A stretch of 54,587 nt of DNA from Patescibacteria group bacterium (lineage in GTDB: Bacteria; Patescibacteriota; Minisyncoccia; UBA10092), in the NCBI GenBank assembly GCA_018826255.1, contig JAHJZO010000029.1:1-54587 (forward strand). The letters run 5' to 3'. How positions within the stretch are numbered: position 1 is the stretch's first letter; every line of letters starts with the position of its first letter. The notes beneath the pieces are model-generated. The model was not told the origin of the DNA and ran no database searches. It worked only from the letters and a program-made list of their open reading frames with translations. The translations under genes and the position numbers were made by a program. This document shows positions 2,740 to 46,482 of this stretch, piece after piece.

Positions 2740-5081
2740 ATTTTTTTAAAAGGAACTATCCGGTAATTCTTCTGGCAGTTTTATCTCTATTGCTGTTTGG
2801 CCGGATTTTATTTTCCGATAGACTTTTTCCCGGATTTGATCCCCTTTTGATTTTTTATCCCTATTCATTTCATTTTTTCCACTTGCAAAGTTTTTGGACT
2901 TCCGGAATATTAAGCGGATTCAATATTGGCGCGACGCCGGCTACTTTTGCCGGTAATTGGATTTACTATTTTTTTGCCAGTGGCATTGGATTCAAATTTT
3001 TTGACTTTATCACTTTTTATAATATTCTGATTTTCTTTTATTTTTTTCTAACGCTTTCTTTCTCATATCTTTCGGCGAGAGCTTTAGGTTTTGATAAATG
3101 GGTCGCAACTCTGGTTGCTTCCGTTTATATTTTTAGCGCCTATAATTTAAGTTGGATGGTGAATATTGTCACGGCGGCGTCACTTTTTATTTTTCCTGCT
3201 ATTATTTATTTTTTGCTTAAGTTCAAAGAACACCATAAGTGGATTTGGCTTTTTTTAGGAGGACTTGTATTAGGGTCCGGCCTGATAATGGCACATCCCC
3301 AATTTGCTTTAATAGCGGTTTTTGGCGGATTTTTATTTTCGTTATTTTTAACTTTTGAATCGGACTTCAAAAAACCTAAATGGATTTTTCTCGTTGCTTT
3401 TTTAGCGATAAGTTTGATTGGATTAGCATTGGCGGCGTTTCAATTAATCCCTGAATATCAAACAGTTCTGTTAACTCAAAGGGGCGAGGCGCTCAGTTTT
3501 TCAGCATCTCAGGAGTGCGCTTTAATCCCGTTGGATTTTGTCAGATATTTTATCCCGAATTTCAATTTTTTAGTTAGTTGCGAATCTCTTTTATACATGG
3601 GAGTTTTACCTCTAATTCTGGCGATTTTGGCAATTTTTTACTCCAGAACTGAAAAAAAGCGTATTTTTTTCTGGATGTTTTTATTGGTGTTTTCTATTTT
3701 ATTTTCCGTTAAATATTCTCCATTGGCTTGGATTTTTCATCAACTTCCGATTTGGCGAAGTGTCAGATCGCCGGGCCATTTTTTAATGCTTTCCGATTTT
3801 GCCTTGGCTGTTTTAGCCGGATTCGGTTTTAATTGGGTTTTAGAAAATAAAGAAAAGTTTAAAGAATCAAAAATATATAGGTGGATTAAAGGGCTTTTTT
3901 TCGGGGGGTTAGCAATAATCTTGGCTATAAACATCGCAAGTTTTTTTAAAAACAAATTTATAAAATTAGCGACAGATTATTTTGACAAGTACTATTATCA
4001 GAAAACCATCGGCTTGCCTTTAGAAAATTACCATCGCTCTATAGAAAACCTTATTTCCAGTAATTTTTATAATTTCAGTTTTTTAAATAAAGATTTTGCG
4101 ATTCCATTTATTCTAACAGTGTTAGCGTTTTTGGTTTTATATTTTATTTACAAATTTAATAAAACAGCGCTTTTTTACGCCGTTATTCTTAGTGGTTTTA
4201 TTTGGACAGTTTCCAGTCCTATGATTTCATCCGGTTTAACAAGGGATTTTTTCAAAGAAACCGAAATCATCGGATTTTTAAAGGATAAAAAATCGCCACT
4301 TCGTATTTATAGCTTACTGCCAGGCCTATCCACTTATCAATTATTGGCCTTAACTTATCCCGGCGTTACGGAATCCGACCAGAATGAATTTTTTAAAACA
4401 ATGCTTCCGCCTAATTTGAATATTGTTTACGGCTTGGATTCTATAGACGGCTACGATGCTTCTATGCCACGGCGGACAGCAAGAATCCTCGCCGAACTTT
4501 TGAGCGAACGCGCCACGATTGGAAATAAAATTGCGGAAGCTAGATTAAAACCGGAAGAAAAAATAAAAATCTTTGAAAGTCGCAAAAACCTACTTTCAAT
4601 GATGAATGTCAAATATGTGATTTCAGCTTATCCGCTTGATGAAAAATTTTTTAAAAAAGTTTTTGAGATTAAAACAACACGCTTTGAGGTTCCAGTTTAT
4701 ATTTATGAAAATAAAAATGTTTTGCCAAGATTTTATTTCGCGAAAACGGTAAATTCAGTTGAATCCGATGAAATGAAGGTTTTGAACGAAATTTTGGCCC
4801 CGGATATTAATTTCGGAGCCATAACGTTTATAGAATGCGGCGACAATTGCGAGGGCGTTTCTTTAGGAAAAATTATTGACTATGAATATAAAAACGGCTA
4901 TTTGCGGATAAATACTGAAAGTCAAATTGGCGGCTGGCTAGTATTCAGCGAGTCATATGACAATAATTGGCAAGCTCTTATAAACGGCGCGGAAGATTCT
5001 ATTTACAGAGCTAATTATATTTATCAAGCGGTTCAAGTCCCGGCCGGGGGAAATACTGTTGAATTTATTTACAAACCATGA
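2715..5081 (+). CDS. YfhO-family polytopic membrane glycosyltransferase (GT-C-like), paralog 1
   Basis: 788 aa with many hydrophobic spans. C-terminal NNWQALINGAEDSIYRANYIYQAVQVPAGGNTVEFIYKP is typical of YfhO. Overlaps the upstream GT2 gene by 25 nt. Confidence 0.7.
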   Translation: MENDLKKINFFKRNYPVILLAVLSLLLFGRILFSDRLFPGFDPLLIFYPYSFHFFHLQSFWTSGILSGFNIGATPATFAGNWIYYFFASGIGFKFFDFITFYNILIFFYFFLTLSFSYLSARALGFDKWVATLVASVYIFSAYNLSWMVNIVTAASLFIFPAIIYFLLKFKEHHKWIWLFLGGLVLGSGLIMAHPQFALIAVFGGFLFSLFLTFESDFKKPKWIFLVAFLAISLIGLALAAFQLIPEYQTVLLTQRGEALSFSASQECALIPLDFVRYFIPNFNFLVSCESLLYMGVLPLILAILAIFYSRTEKKRIFFWMFLLVFSILFSVKYSPLAWIFHQLPIWRSVRSPGHFLMLSDFALAVLAGFGFNWVLENKEKFKESKIYRWIKGLFFGGLAIILAINIASFFKNKFIKLATDYFDKYYYQKTIGLPLENYHRSIENLISSNFYNFSFLNKDFAIPFILTVLAFLVLYFIYKFNKTALFYAVILSGFIWTVSSPMISSGLTRDFFKETEIIGFLKDKKSPLRIYSLLPGLSTYQLLALTYPGVTESDQNEFFKTMLPPNLNIVYGLDSIDGYDASMPRRTARILAELLSERATIGNKIAEARLKPEEKIKIFESRKNLLSMMNVKYVISAYPLDEKFFKKVFEIKTTRFEVPVYIYENKNVLPRFYFAKTVNSVESDEMKVLNEILAPDINFGAITFIECGDNCEGVSLGKIIDYEYKNGYLRINTESQIGGWLVFSESYDNNWQALINGAEDSIYRANYIYQAVQVPAGGNTVEFIYKP

Positions 5082-9826: not shown

Positions 9827-10989
9827 GAATTCTATTTATTTTAGACGAGTTTTTGCCGGAAAATAACGGTGGCGCCGCCAATATTGCTTTCGGGCTGGCA
9901 AAGGGGATGATAAGGCTCGATCATGATTTATTGGTATTAACAGCAACTTATAATCCGGAAAAAGTTGGCGATATCGAAATTGAGGGCGTTAAAATAAAAA
10001 GAATTTTAGCATATTCTTTCGGACGTTTGCGAAACTTCAAAAATCTTAAAAATCGGGGGATTTTAAATGAATCAGAAAAGATTATAAGGGAGTATCATCC
10101 GGATGTGATTCATATCCACACTTTGCATCACAGATTTTCGTATGGCATTATCGGATTGGCGAAAAAACTTTCTAAAGCTGTTTTTCTCACCCTTCATGAC
10201 GCGCAAACAGTTTTTAATGGAAAATTGTTTCCTAAAAATGATTATAAAATCACTTGGTTTGATAATTTAAAAAAGGATAAACTTGGTTATAATCCTCTGC
10301 AGAAGTTTTTTATTAAAAAGGCGCTGAAAAATGCCGATAAACTTTTTGCAGTTAGCAATGCTTTAAAAAAAGCGCTTGAAGCTAATGGCGCCGGTGATAT
10401 AACGGTAATTCATAATGGAATTAACTTTAATGAGTGGCCAATTGATGAAATTCAGGGAAACAATATTCTTTTTATCGGCAGGGTAGATGAAGCAAAAGGG
10501 GCAAATGTTTTAATTAAAATTATGAGGGCTATTAATAGTAAGATACCAGGCGCCAATCTTATAATTGTTGGCGATGAAAATTTTAAAGCAGGGGATAATA
10601 AAAATATAAAAATACTTTCGTGGCAATACGATAGGATTGAAGTTAAAAAAATTTTTGCCAAAGCTAAAGTAGTCGTTGTCCCGTCGCTTTATTTAGACCC
10701 GTTTCCAACGGTTAATCTTGAGGCGATGGCGGCAGGCCGGCCCGTTGTAGGAACGTGTTTTGGCGGAACGCCGGAAGTTGTAGTTGATAACGAAACGGGC
10801 CATATTGTTAATCCGTACGACGAAAAAAAATTGATTGAAAAAATTGTTGACTTACTAGAAAATCATGACAAGGCAAAATTATTTGGCTCTAACGGCAGAA
10901 AAAGAATAGAAAAATTTTTCAGTTTGGAAAAGCAAATCCAAGAGACACTTACGATTTATAATAAATCGCTAATGAAAGAAAAGCAGTAA
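9823..10989 (+). CDS. GT4 (GT-B) glycosyltransferase
   Basis: DPFPTVNLEAMAAGRPVVGT motif. 388 aa. Confidence 0.8.
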   Translation: MRILFILDEFLPENNGGAANIAFGLAKGMIRLDHDLLVLTATYNPEKVGDIEIEGVKIKRILAYSFGRLRNFKNLKNRGILNESEKIIREYHPDVIHIHTLHHRFSYGIIGLAKKLSKAVFLTLHDAQTVFNGKLFPKNDYKITWFDNLKKDKLGYNPLQKFFIKKALKNADKLFAVSNALKKALEANGAGDITVIHNGINFNEWPIDEIQGNNILFIGRVDEAKGANVLIKIMRAINSKIPGANLIIVGDENFKAGDNKNIKILSWQYDRIEVKKIFAKAKVVVVPSLYLDPFPTVNLEAMAAGRPVVGTCFGGTPEVVVDNETGHIVNPYDEKKLIEKIVDLLENHDKAKLFGSNGRKRIEKFFSLEKQIQETLTIYNKSLMKEKQ

Positions 10990-12196
10990 AAGTTCTGGCG
11001 ATAACGCGAGCCAGAATTAAGCCGATGAGACCGTAAAGAGGAGTTAGAATTGTCATCACCGAGATCTGAAAAATAGGAGAGACAATATTAAACCAATACA
11101 ATTTTTTTATTTTTTTATGAGCCGTTAAAGCAGGAATTATAAAAGTTGCGGGCGTACTTAAAATTGAAATGACGAAAATCTGGGACAGGAAAACAGAATC
11201 CATGTAGCGGGGGAAAAATATACTGTAAAAAAGCGGCGCTAAAATTATATAAGCCACAACAATCACTAAAGTGAAAACCGTTAGAATAATAATTTTTCGT
11301 AGCATTGTTTTTTTCAATTCTTTTTCGCTTCTTTCTGAAAATTTCGGCAATGCTAAATCCGGAAGACCTTTGAGGAGGCCTTTAATTTGTTCCGGCGGAG
11401 CTATGGCGAATGTATAATTGGCAAGATTTGCAGGCCCCAAAAAATGAAAAGCTAAAAATCGGTCAAGATAAGAAGCGATAACTGAAACAATGTTAATAAT
11501 ACTTAAATGTTTCGCATAAGCCATAATTCCCTCATCTTCCCCACTATTAGCGGGTTTTATTTTCATTTTGGTTTTAATGAAAAAGAAAGCGTTGGGGATA
11601 AGATTAGCGAGCAGATATGCAATTACTAAATGAAGAATATTTTTAGTCAGGAAAATTACCGTTATTAAAACTGCGGCAATAAATATTTGACCGGCCACCG
11701 CGTAATAAGCTGAAGTTTTAAATTCCCTTTTACCTATAAGATAAGCATTGTAAATCTGGAAACTGTTGAGCAGGGGGATGAATACCGCTCCGATAAAAAA
11801 AGCCGTTGCCAACATTAAATTTCCGTTATAAAAATAGTAACCCCCGATAATCAAGGCGGCTAAAGTCCCTAAAATTCCGTATTTTAATTTTTTCTTTAAT
11901 CCCAAACTTAGTGAATTTTCAAATCCACGACTGACGGATTGGATAACAGCTGTGTCCATCCCCGGCAAGGCGAAAATCCCAAGAACCGAAATCCATGCCA
12001 AAATATAACTGTATGTTCCGTAAATTTCTTTTGGTAATAAACGCGCAAAGAAAAAAGCCAGAGCAAAATTGACCGCGATAGAAATAAAATTTCCGAAAGT
12101 CAAAAAAGACCCGCCTTTTAAAATATAAGATAGATTTATTTCGAGAAAATCAGAGATTTTATTGAGCAAATTCGCAACACATTTTCTTGGAAACAT
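10949..12196 (-). CDS. Wzx-like oligosaccharide flippase (MOP/Polysacc_synt family)
   Basis: 415 aa polytopic protein whose N-terminal region is typical of Wzx. Convergent 41-nt overlap with the GT4 gene. Confidence 0.65.
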   Translation of the reverse strand: MFPRKCVANLLNKISDFLEINLSYILKGGSFLTFGNFISIAVNFALAFFFARLLPKEIYGTYSYILAWISVLGIFALPGMDTAVIQSVSRGFENSLSLGLKKKLKYGILGTLAALIIGGYYFYNGNLMLATAFFIGAVFIPLLNSFQIYNAYLIGKREFKTSAYYAVAGQIFIAAVLITVIFLTKNILHLVIAYLLANLIPNAFFFIKTKMKIKPANSGEDEGIMAYAKHLSIINIVSVIASYLDRFLAFHFLGPANLANYTFAIAPPEQIKGLLKGLPDLALPKFSERSEKELKKTMLRKIIILTVFTLVIVVAYIILAPLFYSIFFPRYMDSVFLSQIFVISILSTPATFIIPALTAHKKIKKLYWFNIVSPIFQISVMTILTPLYGLIGLILARVIARTFTAFLSLAIYYKS

Positions 12197-12264
12197 AGTT
12201 TGTATTATGTCTTAAATGTAGCATGATGGCAAATATGGAAGAATAGAATAAAAATTCTTTTTAG

Positions 12265-12289
12265 AAAACCGCGTGGGATGCGCGGTTTT
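12265..12289 (-). terminator. hairpin terminator downstream of the 12309..13073 methyltransferase
   Basis: AAAACCGCG-TGGGATG-CGCGGTTTT. A T-run follows on the minus strand. Confidence 0.6.
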
Positions 12290-12308
12290 GTGTTTCAAAA
12301 GTTTATTA

Positions 12309-13073
12309 TTAAAGTTTTTTTACGACAAAGCGCAATCTTCTTGCGGTAAAAAAGGTATCTTGCGGAACGATGTCCAATCGCAACAGTTTAAAAGAATCGC
12401 GGAATTCTTTGGATTTAAAATATGACAAATCAATAAAATTAGAAGACGAAAAATCTTTCATATAATCCAGGTGGGAGAGTTCTTTAATATAATCTTTTGA
12501 CCTGTGAGGAAGCACTATCGGCCCAATCCATCTTATAGCTGTTCCGCCAATACCTAATTTAAAAGTGTTTCTAATAAGAAAAAAGAAAATTTTATTCCAA
12601 GTAATGCGCGGAATGGAATCAATCGCTATAATTGCACTGGGTTTTGCGATATGTTTCAATAACTTAAACTTAGCAGGTGTGTCTCCAGGCACTATGTGTA
12701 AAACACTGTAGGACATTATCAGGTCAAAGCGGTTTTTGAAATTCGGTTTGTCGAGATCCATCATACCATTCAAAAGAAACTCAACACCTTCTTTTTTAAA
12801 AGCAGGATTTTCCAAACAGCGATTAATTGATAAGTCAGAAATATCAGCTCCAACAATGTGGCATTGCCGGTATTTGAGAAGCTCGCGAATTAAACCGCCG
12901 GCACCGCACCCAAGATCAATGCATTCTTCAAATTTATCACGGTAAGGTAATATGTATGTTTTTACAAAATTTTCGTGTATTTCCTGAGGAAAATTACTAT
13001 AAGTATTAAATTTCATTTCGAGCATTTGTTTGATATGATTAAGTATATAAACAAGTGATAGTTTAATTAGCAT
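12309..13073 (-). CDS. class I SAM-dependent methyltransferase
   Basis: CIDLGCGAGGLIRELL motif I. Alternative internal starts at 13025 and 13016 are possible. Confidence 0.7.
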   Translation of the reverse strand: MLIKLSLVYILNHIKQMLEMKFNTYSNFPQEIHENFVKTYILPYRDKFEECIDLGCGAGGLIRELLKYRQCHIVGADISDLSINRCLENPAFKKEGVEFLLNGMMDLDKPNFKNRFDLIMSYSVLHIVPGDTPAKFKLLKHIAKPSAIIAIDSIPRITWNKIFFFLIRNTFKLGIGGTAIRWIGPIVLPHRSKDYIKELSHLDYMKDFSSSNFIDLSYFKSKEFRDSFKLLRLDIVPQDTFFTARRLRFVVKKL

Positions 13074-13136
13074 ACTCTTTAATTCTTGAACTTGGCAAGC
13101 GGATATAAAAAATAAGAATATTTCTTGTAAAACAAA

Positions 13137-15596
13137 ATGTTACAATATTTATATAAAATAATAAATCAAAAAATCATTTGGGGTTTAATGATATTTTGCT
13201 TATTTTTTATTGGGCTTGGCACAATCCTCTGGCCCGTTTTAAGCGGGCAGAAAATATTTAATGACTACTATGTGACGAACTATGCCGTTGGCCAGACCGG
13301 CTATAATTTTTATAAAGATTTCGGCGATAGCTTGAGGCAGGGGCATTTGCAACTTTGGCTATCAAGCTATATGGGGGGCTTCCCCGTATATCTAACGCAA
13401 GCGGGCTTTTTTAATCCCATCGGGATGATTCTTTTTAGGTTTTTTGACTATATTTTTGCCTACAATTGGCTGACTTTTTTAAATTTCCTGTTTGCGGGAC
13501 TGGCAATGTATTGGTTTATAAGAAATTTAAAATTATCAAAATTAGCCGCTATTTTAGGAGGATTTGCTTGGGCGCTTTCTTTTAATAATATCCAATATGG
13601 GTCCATGCTGATTTTTAGTAATCTTTATTTCTTTATTCCGTTGTTTTTTGGCGCAATTCTAAAATTGTCAAGAGGGAATAAAAAATATCTTATTTTGGGC
13701 AGTTTGATCTCTGCCTATGGTTTAATAGCAGGTTTTACAACCTTAGTTTTTTACACGTTTATCACAGGCTTAGCTTGGGCTTTGTTTTTAGATTGGCCAA
13801 AATTTCTTGGAAAGACACTTCGCAATTATATTTTTATTTCTTTGATCGGAATAATCTTAGCGAGTATTTGGCTTTTGCCGGTTTTGAATTATTTGCCGCT
13901 TACCTTGCGGGGAGACGCGATAAGTTCAATAAATTTTTATGATTACTTAAAAATTGGCGATATTTTAAGATTTTTTTATCCTTTTATTCAATTGCCGGGA
14001 TTTGGCGGTTTTTCACTTTTAAGCGGCGTAGCCAATCTTTATGTCGGCATTATCCCGTTTTTATTGGCAATTATAGCTTTTTTTCTGTGGAAAAGGAACA
14101 AAATGATTGCATTTTGGTTAGGGCTTTTCATTTTTGCGTTTTCAATGCGACTTTGGTTTTTTCCGGTGTTCCAATGGCTTCAGTATTTGCCTTTATTCAA
14201 TAAATTCAGAGCGCCTTTCCATTGGTACAGTTTGGCATTTTTTTCTTTATCAGTGCTTTCTGCCTATGGTTTGGATTATTTAAAAGATATTAAAGAAACA
14301 GGGTGGTTCAAGAAGTTTATAAAAATTTTAGAAATTTTCGCGGTTTTAAATATTGCAATTGTTCTGATAATTAATACGGCAATAAAATTTTTTCGTATAA
14401 ATATTTTAAATACCATTTTTGAATATTTTGATAAATATTTATATTCAATCGCCAAAAAAAATCCGATTGATTATTATCATCAAATTATAACGCAGGTTTT
14501 TGATAAAAGCGCTCAAACTTTTTCTTTCTCTAATTACCATTTTTTAATTTCTTTTGTGTTCGTTTTAATAGGCATTTCGATTTTTGTTTTGTATCGGCGG
14601 GATTATATAAGTTTTGAAAAATTTAGAATATTGGCGGTAGCGATTGCAATTCTAAATTTGGTCTTTATCTGGCAGGGATATTATAATTTTACTTCCAAAA
14701 ATTTAATAACCAATCCGCCGGATACAGTTCAATTCATTAAAAAGCAAAAAGAGTCAGATAATTTTAGAGTTTTCAGATTTTATCCGCCGGAAATGTATAA
14801 GCAATTTGGACTTTATGATTTAAAAAATCCTTTGGATTACGATATAAAAACTTTGGGATTACAAATTAATCCCTATTGGATTGATGGGCTCGGCGGAGGA
14901 GAGCCGTTTAGGTCACAGAGAATTTCCGAAGTTCTTGATGAAATCGGTTATGAAGTTTCATCTATGTATGGTCCAGTTTGGATTAAATTCAATGATATTT
15001 CTCTTAACGACAAAACCTCCCGCTTTTCCTCTCCTCAAAACCTAAACCTCATGTCCATGCTTAATATCAAATACGTCTTTTCTTCATTTAAATTACTCAA
15101 CCTGAAACTTATTTATGAAACCACAGCCACGGAAAAAAACATTCCGGTATATGTCTACGAAAATCCCAACGCTATGCCAAGAATATATTTTGCCAATAGT
15201 GTTAAATATATTGACTCTCAGAATGCGTTTGAGGAGCTATTGAAAGTTAAGGATTTTCATGAGATGACGTTGATTGAAGCGACGAAATCCGACCGAAGTC
15301 CGACATCTGGGGATCTCGATGTCGGACTTCAAGAAGTGTCGGATTTTGATATGATAGAATTTAAATCAGAATCAGTAAAAATCAAAACTTCCGGCGATGG
15401 TGGATGGTTAATATATAGTGATGCTAATTTGCCGACCTGGGAAGCGTATATAGACGGCCAAAAAACAGACATTTACACAGCCAACTATCTGTTCAAGTCC
15501 ATATTTGTTCCGGAAGGGGAACATGAAGTGATATTTAAATATCCGGGTTTGTGGGGGCAGTTTAAATATGCGTTCGAAAGTATTTTTGAAAAATAG
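13137..15596 (+). CDS. YfhO-family polytopic membrane glycosyltransferase, paralog 2 (A)
   Basis: 819 aa multi-TM protein. C-terminus WEAYIDGQKTDIYTANYLFKSIFVPEGEHEVIFKYPG. Paralog of 16457..18856. Confidence 0.7.
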   Translation: MLQYLYKIINQKIIWGLMIFCLFFIGLGTILWPVLSGQKIFNDYYVTNYAVGQTGYNFYKDFGDSLRQGHLQLWLSSYMGGFPVYLTQAGFFNPIGMILFRFFDYIFAYNWLTFLNFLFAGLAMYWFIRNLKLSKLAAILGGFAWALSFNNIQYGSMLIFSNLYFFIPLFFGAILKLSRGNKKYLILGSLISAYGLIAGFTTLVFYTFITGLAWALFLDWPKFLGKTLRNYIFISLIGIILASIWLLPVLNYLPLTLRGDAISSINFYDYLKIGDILRFFYPFIQLPGFGGFSLLSGVANLYVGIIPFLLAIIAFFLWKRNKMIAFWLGLFIFAFSMRLWFFPVFQWLQYLPLFNKFRAPFHWYSLAFFSLSVLSAYGLDYLKDIKETGWFKKFIKILEIFAVLNIAIVLIINTAIKFFRINILNTIFEYFDKYLYSIAKKNPIDYYHQIITQVFDKSAQTFSFSNYHFLISFVFVLIGISIFVLYRRDYISFEKFRILAVAIAILNLVFIWQGYYNFTSKNLITNPPDTVQFIKKQKESDNFRVFRFYPPEMYKQFGLYDLKNPLDYDIKTLGLQINPYWIDGLGGGEPFRSQRISEVLDEIGYEVSSMYGPVWIKFNDISLNDKTSRFSSPQNLNLMSMLNIKYVFSSFKLLNLKLIYETTATEKNIPVYVYENPNAMPRIYFANSVKYIDSQNAFEELLKVKDFHEMTLIEATKSDRSPTSGDLDVGLQEVSDFDMIEFKSESVKIKTSGDGGWLIYSDANLPTWEAYIDGQKTDIYTANYLFKSIFVPEGEHEVIFKYPGLWGQFKYAFESIFEK
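15285..15346. repeat. nested in-frame palindrome inside the variable cassette of YfhO paralog A
   Basis: Inner arms GAAGTCCGACAT (15295-15306) / ATGTCGGACTTC (15319-15330). Outer arms AAATCCGAC (15285-15293) / GTCGGATTT (15338-15346). Confidence 0.8.
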
Positions 15597-15602
15597 ATAT
15601 TT

Positions 15603-16454
15603 ATGAAAAAAACAGAATTTTGTCCTATTTGTCGCAAAAAAAATCCAAGCGAATTTGATCATAAAAATGAATTTACTATATGGAAATGTTCCGGTTGTGA
15701 TTTATTATGGACACCAGATGTAAGTGAGGATATTTTAAGAGAATTTTATTCAAAGTCATATTTTAAAAGTCAGCATCATATTTTCGGTTATAGTAACTAT
15801 ATCGAAGATGAAGAAACTCTTCGTATTAATGCTCGCTACATATTATCCGAATTTCCGGAATTCAAAAATCGTTTACCTAAAATGCTTGATATCGGATGTG
15901 CTTACGGTTTTTTATTAGATGAGGCCAGGAAGTTGGGTTGGGGAACAGAAGGTCTGGAATTTAGCACTGAGGCAACGAACTATGCAGTCAATAAATTAAA
16001 TTTAAATGTATCTACTGGCTCTATTATGCAAGCCAATTTTCCTGAAAATAGTTTTGACATTGTTACAATGATAGGTGTTATAGAGCATCTAGCCGATCCT
16101 ATAGCCGCCATTCGCAAGATAAATAAAATATTAAAACTCGGCGGTTACCTTGCCATTACCACTATTAACACCAAGGGATTCGTGAGGTTATTTGATTTAA
16201 AGCCGCCAGAACATACTTTTTATTTTTCTGCCAAAAATTTATCTTTATTATTAAAAACGGAAAATTTTAAAGTAATGAAATCTCTTCCTTATTGGTGCTT
16301 TTATAATTTAAATGAGGCCTTGGATAGAGCTTTTAGATTGATTTTTAAATCTAGTAAAAGAATCGAGGAATTTTTAGGAAAATTCCCTTTTTTGAAATAT
16401 CCAGTAAAAGTGCCAACCAATGAAATGTTTGTATTGGCCCGAAAGATAAAATAA
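15603..16454 (+). CDS. class I SAM methyltransferase with N-terminal Zn-ribbon
   Basis: CPICRKK...CSGCDLLW and MLDIGCAYGFLL. Sits between the two YfhO paralogs. Confidence 0.75.
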   Translation: MKKTEFCPICRKKNPSEFDHKNEFTIWKCSGCDLLWTPDVSEDILREFYSKSYFKSQHHIFGYSNYIEDEETLRINARYILSEFPEFKNRLPKMLDIGCAYGFLLDEARKLGWGTEGLEFSTEATNYAVNKLNLNVSTGSIMQANFPENSFDIVTMIGVIEHLADPIAAIRKINKILKLGGYLAITTINTKGFVRLFDLKPPEHTFYFSAKNLSLLLKTENFKVMKSLPYWCFYNLNEALDRAFRLIFKSSKRIEEFLGKFPFLKYPVKVPTNEMFVLARKIK

Positions 16455-16456
16455 AT

Positions 16457-18856
16457 ATGAAAGTTATTTTTTTATTTTTAATTTGCTTGCTTGTGATTTT
16501 TGGGCCAATTTTATTTGGCGATAAAGTTATTGATGATTTTTTCGGTCTTGATCTGGCTCAATATAAATTTTTAACAGATTTTGGCGATAATTTGAAACAA
16601 AATTTGACACAACTTTGGTGGCCGGATTATCTCGGGGGTTTTCCGATTTATTTAACTCAAACCGGCCTTTTTACTCCTTTAGTTTTTATTTTATATAAAT
16701 TCTTTAGTGGTTTCGCAGTTTACAATTGGCTAACCTTTCTTAATTTCCTGATCGGAGGGCTTGCAATGTATTGGTTTGGTAGAAATTTATCGCTTTCAAA
16801 GATTGCTTCAGTTATTGTTGGCTTAACCTACGTTTTATCCCAAAATAATTTATATTGGGGTCCAACTTTAGTTTTCAGCAATGTTTATCCATTTATCCCT
16901 CTGTTTTTTCTGGCATTATTGAAAATATCAAGAAATGAAAAATTATGGTTTATTTGGGGGGGCTTGATTTCTGCTTATGGATTAGCGGCTGCAGAAATAC
17001 AAATCGTTTTTTACGTATTTGTTATAGGATTTTTTTGGGCTTTATTTTTATTTTGGCAATCAAAAAATCTAAAACCGATTTGGGGATATTTTAGCATTGG
17101 CATTGCCGGAACAATTCTGGCAAGTTTTTGGCTTTTGCCGGTTTTTAATTATCTGAAGTTAACCACTCGGAGCGGAGCTCTAAGCTTTGCCGATTTGACC
17201 TATGACTTTATGAGAATCGCTGACCCTTTGCGATTTTTCTACCCCTATATCCAGTTGCCGCAATTTACCGGTTTAGCGAGTTTAGGCCTCGTTCCCAATT
17301 ACTATATCGGCGCATTTGTTTTCTTTTTGGCAACGGCGGCGCTCTTTCTGGTTGGGAAGAATAAACTTATTGCTTTTTGGGCCGGTGTTGCCACCTTCGC
17401 CTTGGTGGTTAGAATTAAATGGACGGGGATTTTTTGGTTGCTTCATTTTTTACCCGGCTTTGACCGTTTCCGAGGAGTTTTTCATTGGGCATATATAAGC
17501 TCGTTTGCTTTGGCGCTTCTTGCCGGTTTCGCCGTGGATAATATGGAGCAGATTAAGGAATCAAAATATTTTAAAAAATTTGTTAACGCGCTGAAAATTT
17601 TTGGATGGACAAATATTATTTTAGTTGCAGTCATATTTTTAACCAGTTTGTTTCGTGCCAGAATCTTAAATAAAATTTTCCAATTCTTTGATACAAAGAT
17701 TTATCAGACAACAAGGCAATTTCCCTTAGAACATTACCATAATGTCATTACTTCGGAATTTGATAAATTTTTAAACGCTTTTAGCTTAAGCAATTATCAT
17801 TTTCTTATTTCATTTTTGAGCATTTTAATCGCAGTATTAATTTTTATTTTGTATCAAAGAAATAAAATTACTTTTGATAATTTCAAAAAATCAGCGTTTG
17901 TATTCACGTTCTTAAATTTGGTTTTAATCTGGCAAGGTTATTACAGTTTTATCCCGCAGAATAAAATCACCAATTATCCCGATACGGTAACTTTCATAAA
18001 AAATTACTATCATGGTGAAGAAAAATACAGATTTTTCAGATTTTATCCGCCGGAATCCTATCAAGAATTCGGAGTTTTCAATGTTAAGGATTGGTCTGAC
18101 TATAAATTAAAAACCTTAGAATCAAATATAGGCGTTTATTTTGATATGGATACTTTTGGCGGACTGGAGCCATTTATGTCGGCCCGCATTGCCGATATTT
18201 TTGATGAAATAGGATTTGAGAGGCCTACGGCGATTTCAGGCGAACCTTGGCTTCGCTCTACGAAGTTGTCTTTAACCGACAAAACCTCCCGCTTTTCCTC
18301 TCCTCAAAACCTAAATCTCATGTCCATGCTCAACATCAAATACGTCTTTTCTTCATTTAAATTACTCAACCTAAAATTAGTCTACGAAACCACAGCCACC
18401 GAAAAAAACATTCCGGTATATGTTTACGAAAATCCCGATGCTATGCCAAGGATATATTTTGCCAAGGAGGTTAAATATATTGATTCAGAAAGCGCTTTTG
18501 GCGAGCTATTAAAAGTTAAGGATTTTCATGAGGTGACGTTGATTGAATGCGAAAGAAATTGTCCCAAAATATGGATTTCCGACTTCAAAAATTCCCCGAA
18601 GTCGGAAATCAATATTTTCGAATCGCAACTTATTAAAATCAAAACTTCCGGCGATGGCGGATGGTTAATATACAGTGATGCCAATCTGCCTACTTGGGAG
18701 GCGTATATAGACGGCCAAAAAACGGATATTTACACAGCTAACTATTTATTTAAGTCCGTGTTTGTTCCGGAAGGGGGACATGAAGTGATATTCAAGTATC
18801 CCGGGTTGTGGGAACAAGATAAAGCGGCGCTCAAGCGCTTAATTTTTCGTTACTAA
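16457..18856 (+). CDS. YfhO-family polytopic membrane glycosyltransferase, paralog 3 (B)
   Basis: 799 aa. Colinear with paralog A and near-identical in two C-terminal tracts. Confidence 0.7.
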   Translation: MKVIFLFLICLLVIFGPILFGDKVIDDFFGLDLAQYKFLTDFGDNLKQNLTQLWWPDYLGGFPIYLTQTGLFTPLVFILYKFFSGFAVYNWLTFLNFLIGGLAMYWFGRNLSLSKIASVIVGLTYVLSQNNLYWGPTLVFSNVYPFIPLFFLALLKISRNEKLWFIWGGLISAYGLAAAEIQIVFYVFVIGFFWALFLFWQSKNLKPIWGYFSIGIAGTILASFWLLPVFNYLKLTTRSGALSFADLTYDFMRIADPLRFFYPYIQLPQFTGLASLGLVPNYYIGAFVFFLATAALFLVGKNKLIAFWAGVATFALVVRIKWTGIFWLLHFLPGFDRFRGVFHWAYISSFALALLAGFAVDNMEQIKESKYFKKFVNALKIFGWTNIILVAVIFLTSLFRARILNKIFQFFDTKIYQTTRQFPLEHYHNVITSEFDKFLNAFSLSNYHFLISFLSILIAVLIFILYQRNKITFDNFKKSAFVFTFLNLVLIWQGYYSFIPQNKITNYPDTVTFIKNYYHGEEKYRFFRFYPPESYQEFGVFNVKDWSDYKLKTLESNIGVYFDMDTFGGLEPFMSARIADIFDEIGFERPTAISGEPWLRSTKLSLTDKTSRFSSPQNLNLMSMLNIKYVFSSFKLLNLKLVYETTATEKNIPVYVYENPDAMPRIYFAKEVKYIDSESAFGELLKVKDFHEVTLIECERNCPKIWISDFKNSPKSEINIFESQLIKIKTSGDGGWLIYSDANLPTWEAYIDGQKTDIYTANYLFKSVFVPEGGHEVIFKYPGLWEQDKAALKRLIFRY
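18574..18610. repeat. in-frame 13-bp-stem palindrome inside the variable cassette of YfhO paralog B
   Basis: GATTTCCGACTTC (18574-18586), 11-nt loop, GAAGTCGGAAATC (18598-18610). Shares the TCCGAC/GTCGGA core with the paralog A palindrome. Confidence 0.8.
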
Positions 18857-18866
18857 TTTTCAGATT

Positions 18867-19613
18867 TTATTTTTGAGCAATAAGACTAAACCAATTTTTG
18901 ATTTCCAATTTTTCCAAAAGTTGATACATAACACTATAAGTCACCAAAGGATAACGATGAATTTGAATTATTTTCGGCATTTCTTTTATGATCCATCCCA
19001 TATCCAATCTTTCATGATTAAGATAGTAATCGGCCAAAACCGCATCTGAAGTTTTTTTAAAAAGATGATCATAGACAGTAGGAATGACTTTTTTTGGCGA
19101 ATGAATAAGTTTATTAATAAACGCGTCTAAGAGCTCTAATAAAGAGCGTTTTTTTAACGGTTCATTAAAGATAAAAATGAGGCCGTCCTCTTTAAGCATT
19201 CCCAAGGCCATGCGGATTACCTTTTTGTATTCATAGATATGATGTAGAGAAGCGGCAAACATAATGAGATCGTATTTTTGAGTATTTTCTTCAAAAAACT
19301 TCTCTACCTCAATGCAAATCTTTATCAACTTTCCCTTGCCCGGATATTTGTATAAGTCCAGCATATCCGGAGAGAGGTCAAGGGCGTAAAGAGTGTATCC
19401 CAATTCTAAAAATGCCTTACTTAATAAACCAGTGCCGCAGCCAACGTCTAAAATTACGGGTTCTTTTTTGTTTTTTAAGATACTGTCAATAAGTTTAATA
19501 TCAGTCCAATACGAGTTCCAAATTTGATTACAAAATAGATGCTCGGCGTTATAAGAGCGAGAAATCTCCTTTGATAAATTTCGGTTGGCTTGAAGAATTT
19601 TATTTTGGCCCAT
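18867..19613 (-). CDS. class I SAM-dependent methyltransferase
   Basis: ILDVGCGTGLLSKAF motif I. Confidence 0.75.
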   Translation of the reverse strand: MGQNKILQANRNLSKEISRSYNAEHLFCNQIWNSYWTDIKLIDSILKNKKEPVILDVGCGTGLLSKAFLELGYTLYALDLSPDMLDLYKYPGKGKLIKICIEVEKFFEENTQKYDLIMFAASLHHIYEYKKVIRMALGMLKEDGLIFIFNEPLKKRSLLELLDAFINKLIHSPKKVIPTVYDHLFKKTSDAVLADYYLNHERLDMGWIIKEMPKIIQIHRYPLVTYSVMYQLLEKLEIKNWFSLIAQK

Positions 19614-19641
19614 TTTGTCAGTATTTAATATTTAAAAAATA

Positions 19642-21297
19642 TCATTTGGGACCGACGGTAAAAACATATAGGCCTTGAATGTCCATGATAGGAGAGACGT
19701 TTTTCATATTTTTTGCCAATAGTTCTTGCCGTATTTTTTCAACGTCAGATTTATTTTCGGCAATTAAGAAAGAATAAAATGGATACTCGGAACGATTTCT
19801 AAACCACCAAAAATCCACCAGCAAGTCATGGCTATTCGCAAAATCAATTTTTATCATTCCAAGATAATATTCAAAGTTAAATGTCGGAAACTGCGATTGC
19901 CAGATCCGATTTTTAGGAATAATTCTAAAAGCCATTTTTTCTTGGTTCGGAAAAAAAGTTTGAATTGCTTTGCTGAATTCAATTACTTCTTTTGGTGGAA
20001 CATTATTTGGCCATTCTTTCACATAACTCCAAGTATTAGAAAACTGATATGTCCACAACGCCATGATGATTAAAATCAGGAACCCGAATAAAAATCTTTC
20101 TTTTTGTCCCAGTGATTTCTTTTGCTGAAAAATTTCCAAAACAACAATAGTTGAAGTCCCGATGAGCAACCCCCAAAACGCGGCGGTTAAAACGCCCTGA
20201 TAAGGCCAGCCTCCGGTAGCATTGACAAAAAATGGCTGGATAATGGCGGCAACCGCCAAAATGACAATGATTTTGAAAAAATAATGATTTAAATTTAATT
20301 TTGTTCTCAATTTCCATAAAATTCCGATAATTAAAACAGCACTTCCCAATGTGGTGATTGTTTTTTTGAAAAAATAAAAAGTTTTTACGCTTGTCATCGT
20401 AACAAAAGGTCCCGTTAAACCAACGATAAAATTTTTAACGCCCCTGAATGTTCTCTCAGTATAAATATAACAAAAATCGCTTATCATATTATGCCAGCCC
20501 AAATACCATGTATTTTGGATAATTTGCAACATGAATCCTAAAATTGGCGCCGAAGCGAAAATCAGCCACTTTTTCCAAAGGAATTTTTTTAAAACAAAAA
20601 TATCAAATAAAATAAGATAGGCAAATATATAAAAAGTAGCGTCGTAGGAAGAAAGAGACAATATCAAATAGGCGAACCAGATGTATAGATTATACTTTTT
20701 GTATTTTTCAGGAATATTAAAATTTTGCCAAGCTTGAACGCTTAAATAAAGAATTAAAAAAATAAATAAAATAGTCCATGACTGGAAAGCGGAATCAGCA
20801 TAATTTAAAAAAGTAACTGAAAAACCATAATAAAAAACCGCAATGGTAGCCGTTGCCTTGTTTGAAACCGATTTGATAAACCAATAAAAAAATCCTAAAG
20901 CCAAAAGAGAAAGGAAAATAGAGAAAAATCTAAATAGAAATCTTTCTGTAATTCCGATTTTAGTAAGAATTGCATAGGGAGCAAGGAAAAATGGGGGATA
21001 ATGTGTGTAATGAATAGGGCCGCGAGTTAAAGAACCATCCATTGTGTCAATCGGGCGATTCCTGAATTCCGGTTCGTCCAAATAATGAATAAGTTTACTG
21101 TAAGGTTGCGGTATAAATAAAAAATAATTTTTGGCAAGCCCATCTTTTGCCCAATATTGGCTGGACATTAAAATTTGAGCCGAACCAAAGCCCCAACCAT
21201 CCCAACCGTTTTCATCCATTGCTTTAATACTCAAATAAGAACCCAAAATCAAAATAATTATTAAAATCGGCAGATATTTTTTCACAAAATCAATCAT
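19642..21297 (-). CDS. large polytopic membrane protein of unknown family (candidate GT-C transferase/polymerase)
   Basis: 551 aa, more than 10 hydrophobic spans, long first loop with acidic/aromatic residues (DENGWDGWGF). No family motif recognised by eye. Confidence 0.35.
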   Translation of the reverse strand: MIDFVKKYLPILIIILILGSYLSIKAMDENGWDGWGFGSAQILMSSQYWAKDGLAKNYFLFIPQPYSKLIHYLDEPEFRNRPIDTMDGSLTRGPIHYTHYPPFFLAPYAILTKIGITERFLFRFFSIFLSLLALGFFYWFIKSVSNKATATIAVFYYGFSVTFLNYADSAFQSWTILFIFLILYLSVQAWQNFNIPEKYKKYNLYIWFAYLILSLSSYDATFYIFAYLILFDIFVLKKFLWKKWLIFASAPILGFMLQIIQNTWYLGWHNMISDFCYIYTERTFRGVKNFIVGLTGPFVTMTSVKTFYFFKKTITTLGSAVLIIGILWKLRTKLNLNHYFFKIIVILAVAAIIQPFFVNATGGWPYQGVLTAAFWGLLIGTSTIVVLEIFQQKKSLGQKERFLFGFLILIIMALWTYQFSNTWSYVKEWPNNVPPKEVIEFSKAIQTFFPNQEKMAFRIIPKNRIWQSQFPTFNFEYYLGMIKIDFANSHDLLVDFWWFRNRSEYPFYSFLIAENKSDVEKIRQELLAKNMKNVSPIMDIQGLYVFTVGPK

Positions 21298-21315
21298 TTC
21301 CGAATTTTAATCGTT

Positions 21316-21344
21316 TTGACAATCTAAGTCAAAAGTCATATAGT
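21316..21344 (+). promoter_or_regulatory. sigma70-like promoter for the B12-radical SAM gene
   Basis: TTGACA (21316-21321), 17 nt, TATAGT (21339-21344). GGAGGTG RBS precedes ATG 21390. Confidence 0.55.
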
Positions 21345-21389
21345 TGTCTTCAATGTTCGTTCCCAATTAAATAAAACGGAGGTGAGAAA

Positions 21390-22979
21390 ATGTATCCGAA
21401 ACTTGATGAAAAAAAAGTTTGTTTTGTAACGCCGCCGTCGGCTTTTTCGGCCTATACCGGGACGGCTATTAATGCCGCGACACAGATTTATCCCTATTTG
21501 TCTTATCAGTATCTTTCGGCTTGGCTCAAAGAAAAAATTAAAATGGGGCTTAAGACAAGAGTTCTTGATATGGGGATTGCACCCGATCCATGGCCACTTT
21601 TGGGGCGCTTTCTGTTAAGGGAAAAGCCGAAATATTTAGGGCTGTCTTTCACAACGCCATTGTTTTATGAAGCCAAATTGATAGGCCTGATAGCTAAAGA
21701 TCTTCTTGGGCCGGAACTCGTTTTGATTCATGGTAATGTCCACGCATCAACACTATATGAAGAAAGTTTAACGGAAACAATGTGCGATGTTATTGTGAAG
21801 GGCGAAGGCGAGGTTACTTTCGGAGAAATTTGCCAGGGAAAGCCATTTAACGAAATTTTGGGCGTAATTTATCGCGCTGACGATTGGCGGAAACAACTCA
21901 TTTCTGCCGAGGAAATTATCAGCCGCCGAGTAAAAGGCGAGTCCTGTTATGATATCGCCAAAAATGCGGTTTTTTCGGAAGAGCCCGATATAAGAAGTAC
22001 CATATATTGGGGATCGCGTCCGTACATAGGAAGTTCAAAAAATAACAGCTTAGACGATTTGCCGTTTCCCGACATGGAACTTTACGATATTTATCGTTAT
22101 AAAAATCCGGATATCATTGCTCACGGTTATCCGATGCAGCAGGTTGAAACCAGCCGCGGCTGTCCCTTTACCTGCAATTTTTGCAGTTCTGAAGACACAT
22201 ACAGAGCAATGAGCCCGGATTATGTCATTGAGCTTTACAAATATCTCATAAAATGCGGGGTAAAAGAATTTCGCCTTATTGATGACCAGTTTCTTATTAA
22301 TATAAATAGAGGAAAGGTTATTGCGCAAAAAATGCTGGAAAATAATATAACCATTTCCTGGAATATGGCCAATGGCGTCAGGGCTGACCGAGTTGACAGG
22401 GAATTTCTGGAACTTGCCGCCAGATCGGGATGTTATCAAGTTGGAGGCGGTTATGAATCGGGAGACCAGGAGTCGCTGGATTCAATCCAGAAAAATCTTG
22501 ATATTGAAAAAAGCATTGAATGCATGAAAATGATTAAAGAATTAGATATTGAAACAGTGGGCTTTTTTATGTTTGGAACCCCAGGTGATACCGAAAGGTC
22601 GATGCAGAAAACCATTGATTTTGCCAAAAAACTGATGCCTGATTTTGCCAAAGTTACCGTTTGCATCCCGTTTCCGGATACCCGCCTTTATGCTGATTAT
22701 GAAAAGCGAGGGTTAATATTAAGTAAAAAATGGGATGATTATAACATTCATAAAGCGGCGAGATTATTCAAACACCCGAACGGTTTAACGCCGGAAATTC
22801 TGGAAAAATTTTATTGGAAATTTTATCGGGAGTTTTATCTGAATCCGAGATATCTTTGGTGGAAGGGCCGTAAAAGTTTGAGGGATGGAACTTTTTTCAG
22901 AAACGCGAATCTGGCAAAAAAACTTTTCTTTGCCAAAATAATACCCGATAGCCCGTTGAATTGGGCGTTAAAAAAATAG
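21390..22979 (+). CDS. class B (cobalamin-binding domain) radical SAM enzyme
   Basis: N-terminal B12-binding-like domain, then RGCPFTCNFCSS (CxxxCxxC). Appears monocistronic, sitting between its own promoter and terminator. Confidence 0.75.
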   Translation: MYPKLDEKKVCFVTPPSAFSAYTGTAINAATQIYPYLSYQYLSAWLKEKIKMGLKTRVLDMGIAPDPWPLLGRFLLREKPKYLGLSFTTPLFYEAKLIGLIAKDLLGPELVLIHGNVHASTLYEESLTETMCDVIVKGEGEVTFGEICQGKPFNEILGVIYRADDWRKQLISAEEIISRRVKGESCYDIAKNAVFSEEPDIRSTIYWGSRPYIGSSKNNSLDDLPFPDMELYDIYRYKNPDIIAHGYPMQQVETSRGCPFTCNFCSSEDTYRAMSPDYVIELYKYLIKCGVKEFRLIDDQFLININRGKVIAQKMLENNITISWNMANGVRADRVDREFLELAARSGCYQVGGGYESGDQESLDSIQKNLDIEKSIECMKMIKELDIETVGFFMFGTPGDTERSMQKTIDFAKKLMPDFAKVTVCIPFPDTRLYADYEKRGLILSKKWDDYNIHKAARLFKHPNGLTPEILEKFYWKFYREFYLNPRYLWWKGRKSLRDGTFFRNANLAKKLFFAKIIPDSPLNWALKK

Positions 22980-45726: not shown

Positions 45727-45742
45727 GTGTTAGATAAATGTT

Positions 45743-46482
45743 ATAATGTTAGAAGCTCGGTTTCTAACATTATAAATCTATCATTAACAAATTATCGTCT
45801 GAATATTCTTTGGATTGTTTGGCGATACTAGTTTCTACAAAATTTTTATATTCATTTCCAGTAGAAAATTGTTGAATAATAATATTTCGCTTTAACAATC
45901 CATTCCATCTATTTTCTTTTGAGCAATCTTGATAGCTCGACCATGGATAGGCAAGTTCCTTATTTTTCCATTTAGGTATTTCTCTTGGATTGCGATGAAT
46001 ATAGGTAGATAAATACAAAAGCTGATTATTGTTTTCAACATTTACCGCTTTATATGGGCCTTGAAACAAGTGTCCGGTCTTTTTATATTTTGTATTAAAA
46101 TACTTAGTGTAAGCGCAGAGAACTCTTTGCATATACTTAGCTATGCCGTCTTCTTTCACTTCGCGCACAATAGCATGAAAATGATTTGGCATCATGACAA
46201 AATTTACCAACTCCACATACCTTTCTCTCAGTACTTGTTGTACCGTTTCTTCCACTATGTTAAAAGCTCGGTTTTTAACATAGTGTGATGTTTGACGACC
46301 CAAATTATAAAAAACTATCGGAGACTGAAGATAAATAATTAAAAACAAAAATCTAATCCTATCTTTTTCGTCTAAAAATAGCGGCTGTTTATTGTTGCCT
46401 CTGTTAAAAATATGATAATGTTCGCCCGGAGCGATAATAGTTTTTCTCATAATATAATAATGTTAGAAGCTCGGTTTCTAAC
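45743..46482 (-). mobile_element. complete IS200-like / RAYT unit: Y1 transposase gene flanked by identical 26-nt hairpin-containing repeats
   Basis: ATAATGTTAGAAGCTCGGTTTCTAAC occurs at 45743-45768 and 46457-46482 in the same orientation, bracketing CDS 45770..46450. Confidence 0.75.
45770..46450 (-). CDS. IS200/IS605-family Y1 (HUH) transposase / RAYT-like
   Basis: PNHFHAIV (HUH) and YIHRNP (catalytic Tyr). 226 aa. Confidence 0.85.
   Translation of the reverse strand: MRKTIIAPGEHYHIFNRGNNKQPLFLDEKDRIRFLFLIIYLQSPIVFYNLGRQTSHYVKNRAFNIVEETVQQVLRERYVELVNFVMMPNHFHAIVREVKEDGIAKYMQRVLCAYTKYFNTKYKKTGHLFQGPYKAVNVENNNQLLYLSTYIHRNPREIPKWKNKELAYPWSSYQDCSKENRWNGLLKRNIIIQQFSTGNEYKNFVETSIAKQSKEYSDDNLLMIDL

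Follow-up and report, generated by a model that had tools for sequence, protein, structure and literature searches.

Positions 1 to 54,587 of contig JAHJZO010000029.1 (assembly GCA_018826255.1, Patescibacteria group bacterium), hereafter the window, include two tandem genes, A and B, that encode GT-C glycosyltransferases of the YfhO family. The genome (G000), a 537 kb assembly of 49 contigs that is 96.8% complete and resembles a metagenome-assembled genome (MAG), is that of an ultra-small groundwater bacterium from an Azambacteria-like lineage of Parcubacteria within the candidate phyla radiation (CPR), and the named relatives of the proteins come from Candidatus Azambacteria or Parcubacteria. 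Gene A (13137..15596) is an open reading frame (ORF) of 819 codons for amino acids (aa) with an A-type N-terminal domain, gene B (16457..18856) an ORF of 799 with a B-type N-terminal domain, and a gene for a class-I S-adenosylmethionine (SAM) methyltransferase of 283 aa (15603..16454; Pfam Methyltransf_23/11) sits between them; all three lie on the forward strand, as do the features of A and B described below. The two YfhO proteins are 55% identical over their whole length. This similarity is distributed as a mosaic, in which two C-terminal tracts have been homogenized by gene conversion on either side of a short divergent patch, and the pair provides a clear and replicated example of concerted evolution limited to one domain in a CPR bacterium.

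The unconverted part of the genes, which covers the membrane/catalytic domain and the start of the soluble domain (13137..15006 in A, with the counterpart at 16457-18275 in B), corresponds to the first ~620 residues, where the proteins are 49% identical and third-position identity in the codon alignment is ~0.45; the 55-60% identity that an earlier note on this DNA gave for the membrane domain is therefore too high, 55% being the whole-protein value. At 15007/18276 the identity jumps to ~89% at the nucleotide (nt) level, and a maximum chi-square scan places the breakpoint at 15008 (chi2 = 81, compared with at most 15.4 in 500 permutations). Conversion tract 1 (15007..15278 in A, paired with 18276..18547 in B) contains 30 mismatches in 272 nt (89%); the shorter stretch that had been aligned by hand, 15009-15194 versus 18278-18463, indeed shows exactly 14 mismatches in 186 nt. 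Conversion tract 2 (15378..15555 in A, paired with 18635..18812 in B) has 20 mismatches in 178 nt (88.8%) and encodes most of the C-terminal beta-sandwich, the segment that fits the Pfam YfhO profile; here the near-identity noted before is real, with the B coordinates requiring a correction by 2 nt. The tracts are separated by a patch of 99 nt in A (15279..15377), which encodes ATKSDRSPTSGDLDVGLQEVSDFDMIEFKSES(V), a loop followed by the start of a beta-strand, and of 87 nt in B (18548..18634), which encodes CERNCPKIWISDFKNSPKSEINIFESQL(I); at the protein level the patch extends from ..TLIE to VKIKT... Beyond tract 2, the last ~40 nt diverge again into type-specific tails (..GQFKYAFESIFEK, 15556..15596, in A and ..EQDKAALKRLIFRY, 18813..18856, in B).

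The two genes were compared with homologs from the taxonomic family, in which 12 genomes were sampled and genes of the YfhO pair are present in 4; G004 is a genome of the sister genus, and G009 and G011 (genes G011_dn and G011_up) represent further relatives. Judged by the N-terminal part, A belongs with its ortholog G004_A (71% aa identity) and B with G004_B, G009 and G011_dn (67-72%), so that the A/B duplication predates at least two genera. The tails likewise resemble those of same-type orthologs (QFKYALKNIF in G004_A; QD.AA.K in G004_B and G011) and not that of the paralog. Within the tracts, the relationship is reversed: A and B of G000 are 89% identical to each other in nucleotide sequence versus 69-73% to the orthologs, and in tract 1, where A and G004_A share 69% of the nucleotides, synonymous divergence (dS) between these orthologs is saturated. 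The two paralogs of G004 are independently closest to each other in the tracts (78% and 86% nt identity), and the paralogs of G000, as well as those of G004, have genome-specific substitutions in common.

The synonymous sites tell the same story. Between A and B, the Nei-Gojobori dS reaches saturation (2.15) in the N-terminal part, compared with values of 0.40 for tract 1 and 0.76 for tract 2. Among codons for identical residues, synonymous differences are found in 123 of 291 in the N-terminal part versus 13 of 82 in tract 1 (p = 7.6e-6) and 16 of 57 in tract 2 (p = 0.054, borderline). Thus, conversion stands against uniform divergence or constraint in the case of tract 1, with tract 2 considered by itself at the borderline. 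Phylogenetic trees of 51 homologs, 41 of which form the ingroup, agree with this picture. In the N-terminal tree, the A-type and the B-type each form one clade with 100% support, whereas in the C-terminal tree, built from the tracts only, the A and B labels require 15 changes versus a mean of 16 for shuffled labels, that is, are as scattered as random, and an approximately unbiased (AU) test rejects monophyly of the A-type (p = 7.5e-6). Sister pairs in the C-terminal tree are those of G000, G004 and P0017/P0040, and the paralog partner is the nearest neighbor in 2-3 of 10 pairs, so conversion is sporadic. It can also be one-sided, affecting only tract 1 in P0017/P0040 and only tract 2 in P0008/P0055. 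Taken together, the lower dS, the greater similarity between paralogs than between orthologs and the recurrence in other genomes strongly support gene conversion of the flanks, as the earlier note had proposed.

A sister strain is represented by the Hainich groundwater contig L046 (Hain_H43) in ENA, which has the same gene order including the methyltransferase gene between the paralogs; this gene is missing from that position in G004, G011 and ANAN16. Over ~550 nt that take in the patch, the two L046 paralogs share 100% identity (266/270, 98/98 and 180/180 in the three segments). The identical block carries an A-type patch, begins and ends where the converted region does in G000, and leaves the tails type-specific; the identity through the patch implies that conversion can cross it. 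Another outcome is seen in L073 (ENA ERZ27293351 k141_26998), in which a single chimeric YfhO gene (2313-4730) combines an A-type N-terminus with a B-type patch and tail at a place where relatives have the tandem pair; this single gene appears to be a deletion product, formed by crossing over between the C-terminal repeats. On a larger scale, the glycan island of the window (10900-21400) is mosaic relative to L046: stretches that are 98-100% identical are interspersed with stretches of 68-82% (examples are 13182-13482, 13882-14182, 15782-16182, 17582-18082 and 19168-19468). A further methyltransferase gene of the window, at 12309-13073, is missing from L046. Conversion, gene fusion and inter-strain mosaicism within one 10-kb glycan island point to a high level of homologous recombination in these very small genomes, from which MutS and MutL are apparently missing. 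RecA is present in G000 (C9:3941-4726, 451 bits), and neither MutS (PF00488) nor MutL (PF01119) had a match in the 96.8%-complete assembly.

In the AlphaFold2 model of A, the core of the divergent patch (residues 721-733) has a per-residue confidence (pLDDT) below 50 and lies between strands 711-714 and 736-743, and accordingly the patch is predicted to encode a floppy or disordered surface loop. In the outgroup and in many ingroup genes, the patch opens with C-x-x(x)-C; B, with C-E-R-N-C-P, has kept this ancestral start in the form C-x-x-N/D-C-P. Nearly every lineage has its own middle section of the patch, and no patch type is restricted to A-type or to B-type genes; that of A recurs in P0001 and P0003. 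The 3' ends keep a type signature, EFKSES in A resembling AFKPEY in G004_A and IFESQL in B resembling SFESQL in G009, which implies that both patch alleles predate the conversion of the tracts. The patches had been described as unrelated, which holds for the peptides. As DNA, they align better than shuffled sequences (p = 0.001), partly in different reading frames, as in GGA CTT CAA of A versus GAC TTC AAA of B, or in TGCGAAAGAAAT versus GCG-ACGAAAT. A dN/dS of 0.57 (dN, nonsynonymous divergence) calculated for the patch comes from a forced protein alignment of non-homologous frames and is unusable. Among close strains the patch is no more variable than its surroundings: between A of G000 and its Hainich counterpart, 94 of 98 nt are identical, with 90-94% identity in the flanks, and it is constant in four of seven protein clusters defined at 90% identity (clusters 1, 4, 6 and 8), the other three (5, 7 and 9) containing alternative patch alleles, with the whole C-terminal module swapped.

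Both patches are strong hairpins built on a small palindromic repeat, the motif of which is a pair of 13-nt palindromes, GAAGTC[C/G]GACTTC (the GAAGTCSGACTTC units), 10-11 nt apart. In A, it forms a nested palindrome (15285..15346; fold z = -5.4) with outer arms AAATCCGAC and GTCGGATTT and an inner 13-bp stem (15295-15307/15318-15330) composed of GAAGTCCGACATC, the loop TGGGGATCTC and GATGTCGGACTTC; this loop, when reverse-complemented, gives the 'gagatcccca' loop common in the copies of G007. In B, the palindrome (18566..18618; fold z = -4.0) has two 21-nt arms of 95% complementarity around an 11-nt loop, and the core GATTTCCGACTTC, AAAAATTCCCC, GAAGTCGGAAATC; over a stretch of 29 nt it is 96.6% identical to the copy in rpoB, and it is homologous to a perfect 21-bp hairpin at the patch of P0009, an A-type gene of another organism (AAAATATC-GAAGTCCGACTTC-AAAAATTCTCC-GAAGTCGGACTTC-GATATTTT), from which it differs by two compensatory double changes in the stem. 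In a scan for internal terminators or attenuators, the B hairpin was flagged on the antisense strand only.

The repeat is not confined to the YfhO genes. G000 contains four paired copies, the other two lying in frame in rpoB (C34:3777-3812, loop AAAAATCCCC, context ..GRNEVRLQKSPKSDFKTDF.., with 29 of 30 nt as in B) and in ileS (C2:1586-1627, context ..SAQKSDFGSSSGRSRTSNL..), and ileS of G008 has the element at the same site. The unit, 36-53 nt long, is read in all frames, so that its translation depends on the host: EVRLQKSPKSDF in rpoB, KSDFG..RSRTS in ileS, RSPTSGDLDVGLQ in A and ISDFKNSPKSE in B. Counts of the 13-mer compared with a control pattern are 21/1 in G007, 12/1 in G010 and 11/2 in G008, and the copies typically form pairs 23 nt apart; G007 has a cluster of several in a polytopic membrane protein, where they fall in loops (G007:C8:9480-10200). 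While the host genes have diverged, the 13-mers match letter for letter between genera and even between families (G007, G008, G011 and G030, the last being from another family). In other relatives, the YfhO patch contains heptamer tandem repeats, ATACAAA x4 in G009 and CCAAGCT x4 in G011_dn, or a doubled 17-nt palindrome (G011_up), and the rpoB site draws on the same menu, with (ACAAACA)n in G007, (GCGACAA)n in G003 and short GC palindromes in G001 and G004. G001-G004 and G007 all have other sequences at this site, which is as variable among relatives as the YfhO patch. The presence of the repeat in rpoB and ileS, together with the shared menu at the rpoB site, implies that the content of the patch is a genome-wide, loop-tolerated feature and not specific to the enzyme. 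The patch therefore belongs to a wider, unexplained phenomenon, namely translated mini-palindromes in CPR genes; a full-text search of the literature gave no description of in-frame mini-palindromes in CPR, which is not proof of their absence.

The explanation we favor, and consider probable, is that A and B are ancient paralogs with concerted conversion of the C-terminal part, the patch being a tolerant loop colonized by repeats that acts as a barrier. Under this scenario, the membrane/catalytic domains of the tandem paralogs diverged into two stable lineages, whereas the last ~185 codons, for the extracytoplasmic beta-sandwich domain, would evolve in concert through recurrent, RecA-type non-reciprocal recombination between direct repeats 3.27 kb apart. 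Conversion would be confined to the stretch that is still similar, from ..AACGACAAAA to ..TTGTGGG, with loss of homology limiting it at both ends. The 99/87-nt patch splits the converted region, and its loop, which seems to tolerate almost any sequence, would have been colonized or remodeled by the small dispersed palindromic repeat with two GAAGTCSGACTTC units. The heterology of the patch would usually halt the tracts, so that the two sides are homogenized in separate events; occasionally a tract would run through the patch and yield identical paralogs, as in L046, and a crossover between the repeats could fuse both genes into one. If MutS and MutL are truly absent, the barrier to recombination at 80-90% identity may be lower, and slippage and hairpin-templated changes in the loop may be favored.

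Several observations weigh against this explanation. The lowering of synonymous divergence is borderline in tract 2 taken alone (p = 0.054), which purifying selection constrains very strongly (dN 0.018); the contrast in dS between tract 1 and tract 2, a hint of separate events, is not significant (p = 0.09); the identity of the L046 paralogs comes from a short-read metagenome assembly, such that the repeat might have collapsed, yet the same protein is found on three contigs; and 10 of 11 same-contig pairs carry different patches despite very similar flanks, as selection for difference would also predict.

This last point favors the alternative that the patch functions as a determinant of specificity or antigenicity and is kept different by selection while conversion homogenizes the flanks. 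It is joined by the fact that in both G000 and G004 the flanks on both sides have been converted and the patches differ, by the alternative alleles in clusters 5, 7 and 9, and by the probable extracytoplasmic location of the domain on an enzyme of surface glycans. Selection of this kind is nevertheless hard to reconcile with the identical A-type patches of the two L046 paralogs, with the low-confidence loop predicted for the core, with the occurrence of each patch type in both A-type and B-type genes, and with the modest variation among close strains (94/98 nt; constancy in clusters 1, 4, 6 and 8). Moreover, the repeat that fills the patch is present in rpoB and ileS, with the rpoB site equally variable among relatives, and G000 yielded neither silent cassettes nor a reverse transcriptase. 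We therefore regard this alternative as unlikely; the interpretation of the patch as an antigenic cassette, put forward in the earlier note, is attractive but unsupported, and selection on the patch need probably not be invoked.

It is also conceivable that a single conversion encompassed the entire C-terminal region, patch included, after which the unconstrained, palindrome-unstable patch decayed rapidly through indels, pairs of frameshifts and hairpin-templated changes. The homology of the patches at the nucleotide level, partly in shifted frames, their common repeat family, the compensatory double changes in the stems and the demonstration by L046 that the whole region can be converted all fit this course of events, as does the proportion of synonymous differences (pS) in the flanks, 0.31-0.48, which predicts a neutral identity of 52-69%, with 53 of 84 nt identical in the patch alignment. 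What makes such a history improbable is that the 3' ends of the patches and the C-x-x-N-C-P start in B keep the signatures of their own ortholog groups, that the B patch is nearer to those of G004_B and G011 than to that of A (scores 41.5 and 44.5 versus 31), and that the A patch type is also found in P0003, a more distant A-type gene.

A chimeric contig or a collapsed repeat in a metagenome-assembled genome, which the MAG-like assembly of G000 in 49 contigs might suggest, is very improbable: the G000 copies differ at ~11% of the tract positions, each with private differences, so no collapse has occurred, and the same pattern is seen in independent assemblies of other samples (G004, L046 and L072). 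Finally, the notion that there was no recombination at all and that the tracts just hold the residues under the greatest constraint in the family could appeal to the 70-90% aa identity of the C-terminal domain between any two of the 41 ingroup homologs and to the low dN of tract 2, but it is refuted by synonymous divergence 3-5 times lower in the tracts, by the ortholog comparison with the genome-specific substitutions common to the paralogs in G000 and in G004, by the 100% nucleotide identity in the sister strain and by the AU test.

A bolder reading of the loop can be offered tentatively, and we would not expect it to hold. The patch loop could be one of several fixed sites, along with those in rpoB, ileS and the polytopic membrane protein, occupied by undescribed ultra-small elements (paired 13-nt palindromes or heptamer repeats), which would imply either active homing or self-correction of the DNA or a function at the level of DNA or RNA. 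The observations behind this idea are the compensatory-pair changes in the stems and the invariance of the 13-mers across genera. Were it true, a surface loop of a glycosyltransferase would be continually renewed by such elements and then shuffled between both enzymes by paralog-templated conversion.

With respect to function, gene A matches Pfam PF09586 with 41.5 bits, above the cut-off of 28.5, and gene B with 28.3 bits, marginally below it; the profile covers only the last ~60 residues of both (743-802 in A), and most homologs carry a precomputed PF09586 annotation. The AlphaFold2 model of A, based on the alignment of 51 sequences, has a mean pLDDT of 84.6 and a predicted template modeling score (pTM) of 0.88. 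In it, a helical membrane domain (residues 1 to about 513), in keeping with the polytopic domain of 8-13 transmembrane helices typical of GT-C enzymes, is followed by a soluble domain, the last elements of which are a beta-sandwich (strands 644-801) and a short helix. A sequence search detected no relatives of A and B with solved structures, and therefore folds were compared: the best Foldseek matches in PDB are all GT-C enzymes, AftD (1e-4) and ArnT (1.3e-4), followed by STT3, AglB, AftA and protein mannosyltransferases (PMTs), with probabilities of 0.96-1.0. A candidate for the acidic residue that GT-C enzymes carry in the first extracytoplasmic loop, D43 (..KIFNDYY/VIDDFF), is conserved in at least 90% of the 51 sequences. 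The C-terminal domain is probably extracytoplasmic, with the enzyme acting on a surface glycan, and the distinct membrane/catalytic domains probably use different lipid-linked donors. A common C-terminal domain combined with distinct membrane domains suggests a common acceptor and different donors; the expectation from the common acceptor-side domain is that one polymer is acted upon by both enzymes. To our knowledge, no teichoic acids have been characterized in CPR cells.

The neighborhood of the pair contains a Wzx-like flippase gene (10949..12196; identified with Pfam), which adjoins the YfhO genes, and a third, distant YfhO paralog (31% identity) at 2877-5072; enzymes of the YfhO type work together with a flippase and with a GT2 synthase for polyprenol-phosphate sugars. 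Among better known relatives, YfhO of Bacillus subtilis is a genetically defined GT-C enzyme for the extracellular glycosylation of lipoteichoic acid (LTA), and the GT-C enzyme Lmo1079 of Listeria monocytogenes is, with YfhO, required for the extracellular glycosylation of LTA and wall teichoic acid (WTA) (Rismondo et al. 2018, PMC5836110). A and B resemble these enzymes in the match to PF09586, in the polytopic membrane domain combined with a large extracytoplasmic part, and in the flippase and sugar-tailoring genes of the neighborhood. They differ in that only the last ~60 residues fit the Pfam profile and in that the soluble domain is C-terminal, ending in a short helix, rather than forming a loop before the last transmembrane (TM) helix.

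As a case of concerted evolution, the pair has its closest published parallel in mtrA-1 and mtrA-2 of Methanococcales and Methanomicrobiales, in which gene conversion, restricted to one domain, has persisted throughout the clade's history (Wang et al. 2015, PMC4632066). Both cases involve ancient paralogs of one operon that have different membrane parts and a repeatedly homogenized soluble domain, in which the paralogs group by genome. A and B, however, come from another protein family and another domain of life, and their conversion is sporadic and often broken by the heterologous loop, with inter-strain mosaicism and a fusion/deletion product. A more distant comparison concerns antigenic variation. 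Gene conversion underlies this process in the pilE/pilS system of Neisseria, vlsE of Borrelia and the MgPa repeats of Mycoplasma. The common features are a paralogous copy that templates the rewriting of a surface-related gene and alternative C-terminal modules among near-identical strains. In contrast to these systems, A and B are each a complete gene and have no silent cassettes; conversion here reduces the differences between the copies, the variable patch is what escaped it, and close strains show no hypervariability in this patch. A DNA search of the whole G000 genome for donor cassettes with the 601-nt C-terminus matched only A and B, and a short-word BLAST of G000 for copies of the patch gave only copies of the palindrome. 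A diversity-generating retroelement can be discarded given that no match to a reverse transcriptase (RVT_1) was found in G000.

The repeat itself also invites comparison with known palindromic elements. REP (repetitive extragenic palindromic) and REPIN elements are mobilized by RAYTs (REP-associated tyrosine transposases), which are IS200-like Y1 transposases, and REPINs are extragenic. As in a REPIN, a larger hairpin arises from two short palindromic units in inverted orientation, and G000 has Y1_Tnp genes; unlike REPINs, the GAAGTCSGACTTC pairs lie inside genes, and the hairpins next to the RAYT-like gene are of another sequence. The Rickettsia palindromic elements (RPE), as summarized in PMC10969869, are repeats resembling miniature inverted-repeat transposable elements (MITE), ~100-150 bp long, that are inserted in frame within ORFs and encode a conserved peptide. 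The likeness lies in a dispersed palindromic repeat that is translated as extra loop residues in unrelated genes, including housekeeping ones (here rpoB, ileS and YfhO); the repeat described here is much smaller (36-53 nt) and is read in all frames instead of encoding a conserved peptide. In the copies inspected, neither terminal inverted repeats nor target-site duplications were recognized.

Other hairpins are abundant in this genome. G000 contains 84 perfect hairpins (stem of at least 11 bp, loop of 3-24 nt) versus 3-8 in shuffled sequence. One family, CCCTTATCAGGG-N17-CCCTGATAAGGG, has four copies, three of them around rpoB; further families are AAATTGCATGTT-N18(CCGATCGG)-AACATGCAATTT and TTTCACGCAAAA-N16-TTTTGCGTGAAA. 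The window encodes an IS200/RAYT-like Y1 transposase of 226 aa on the reverse strand (45770..46450; PF01797, 41.8 bits) with an HUH-type 'HFH' motif and a conserved Tyr region, and hairpins at 45741-45775 and 46253-46285, which have the loop GCTCGGT in common, flank or overlap this ORF. These hairpins differ in sequence from the GAAGTCSGACTTC family, to which the RAYT-like gene was accordingly not linked. In all, there are three Y1_Tnp matches in G000, the others being at 1-201 of the window and at G000:C8:4988-5221. A separate short repeat, TTTTCAGATTTTAT, occurs in three exact copies in the window (14770-14783, 18033-18046 and 18857-18870), the first two at homologous positions within A and B, where they encode FRFY, and the third directly after the stop codon of B.

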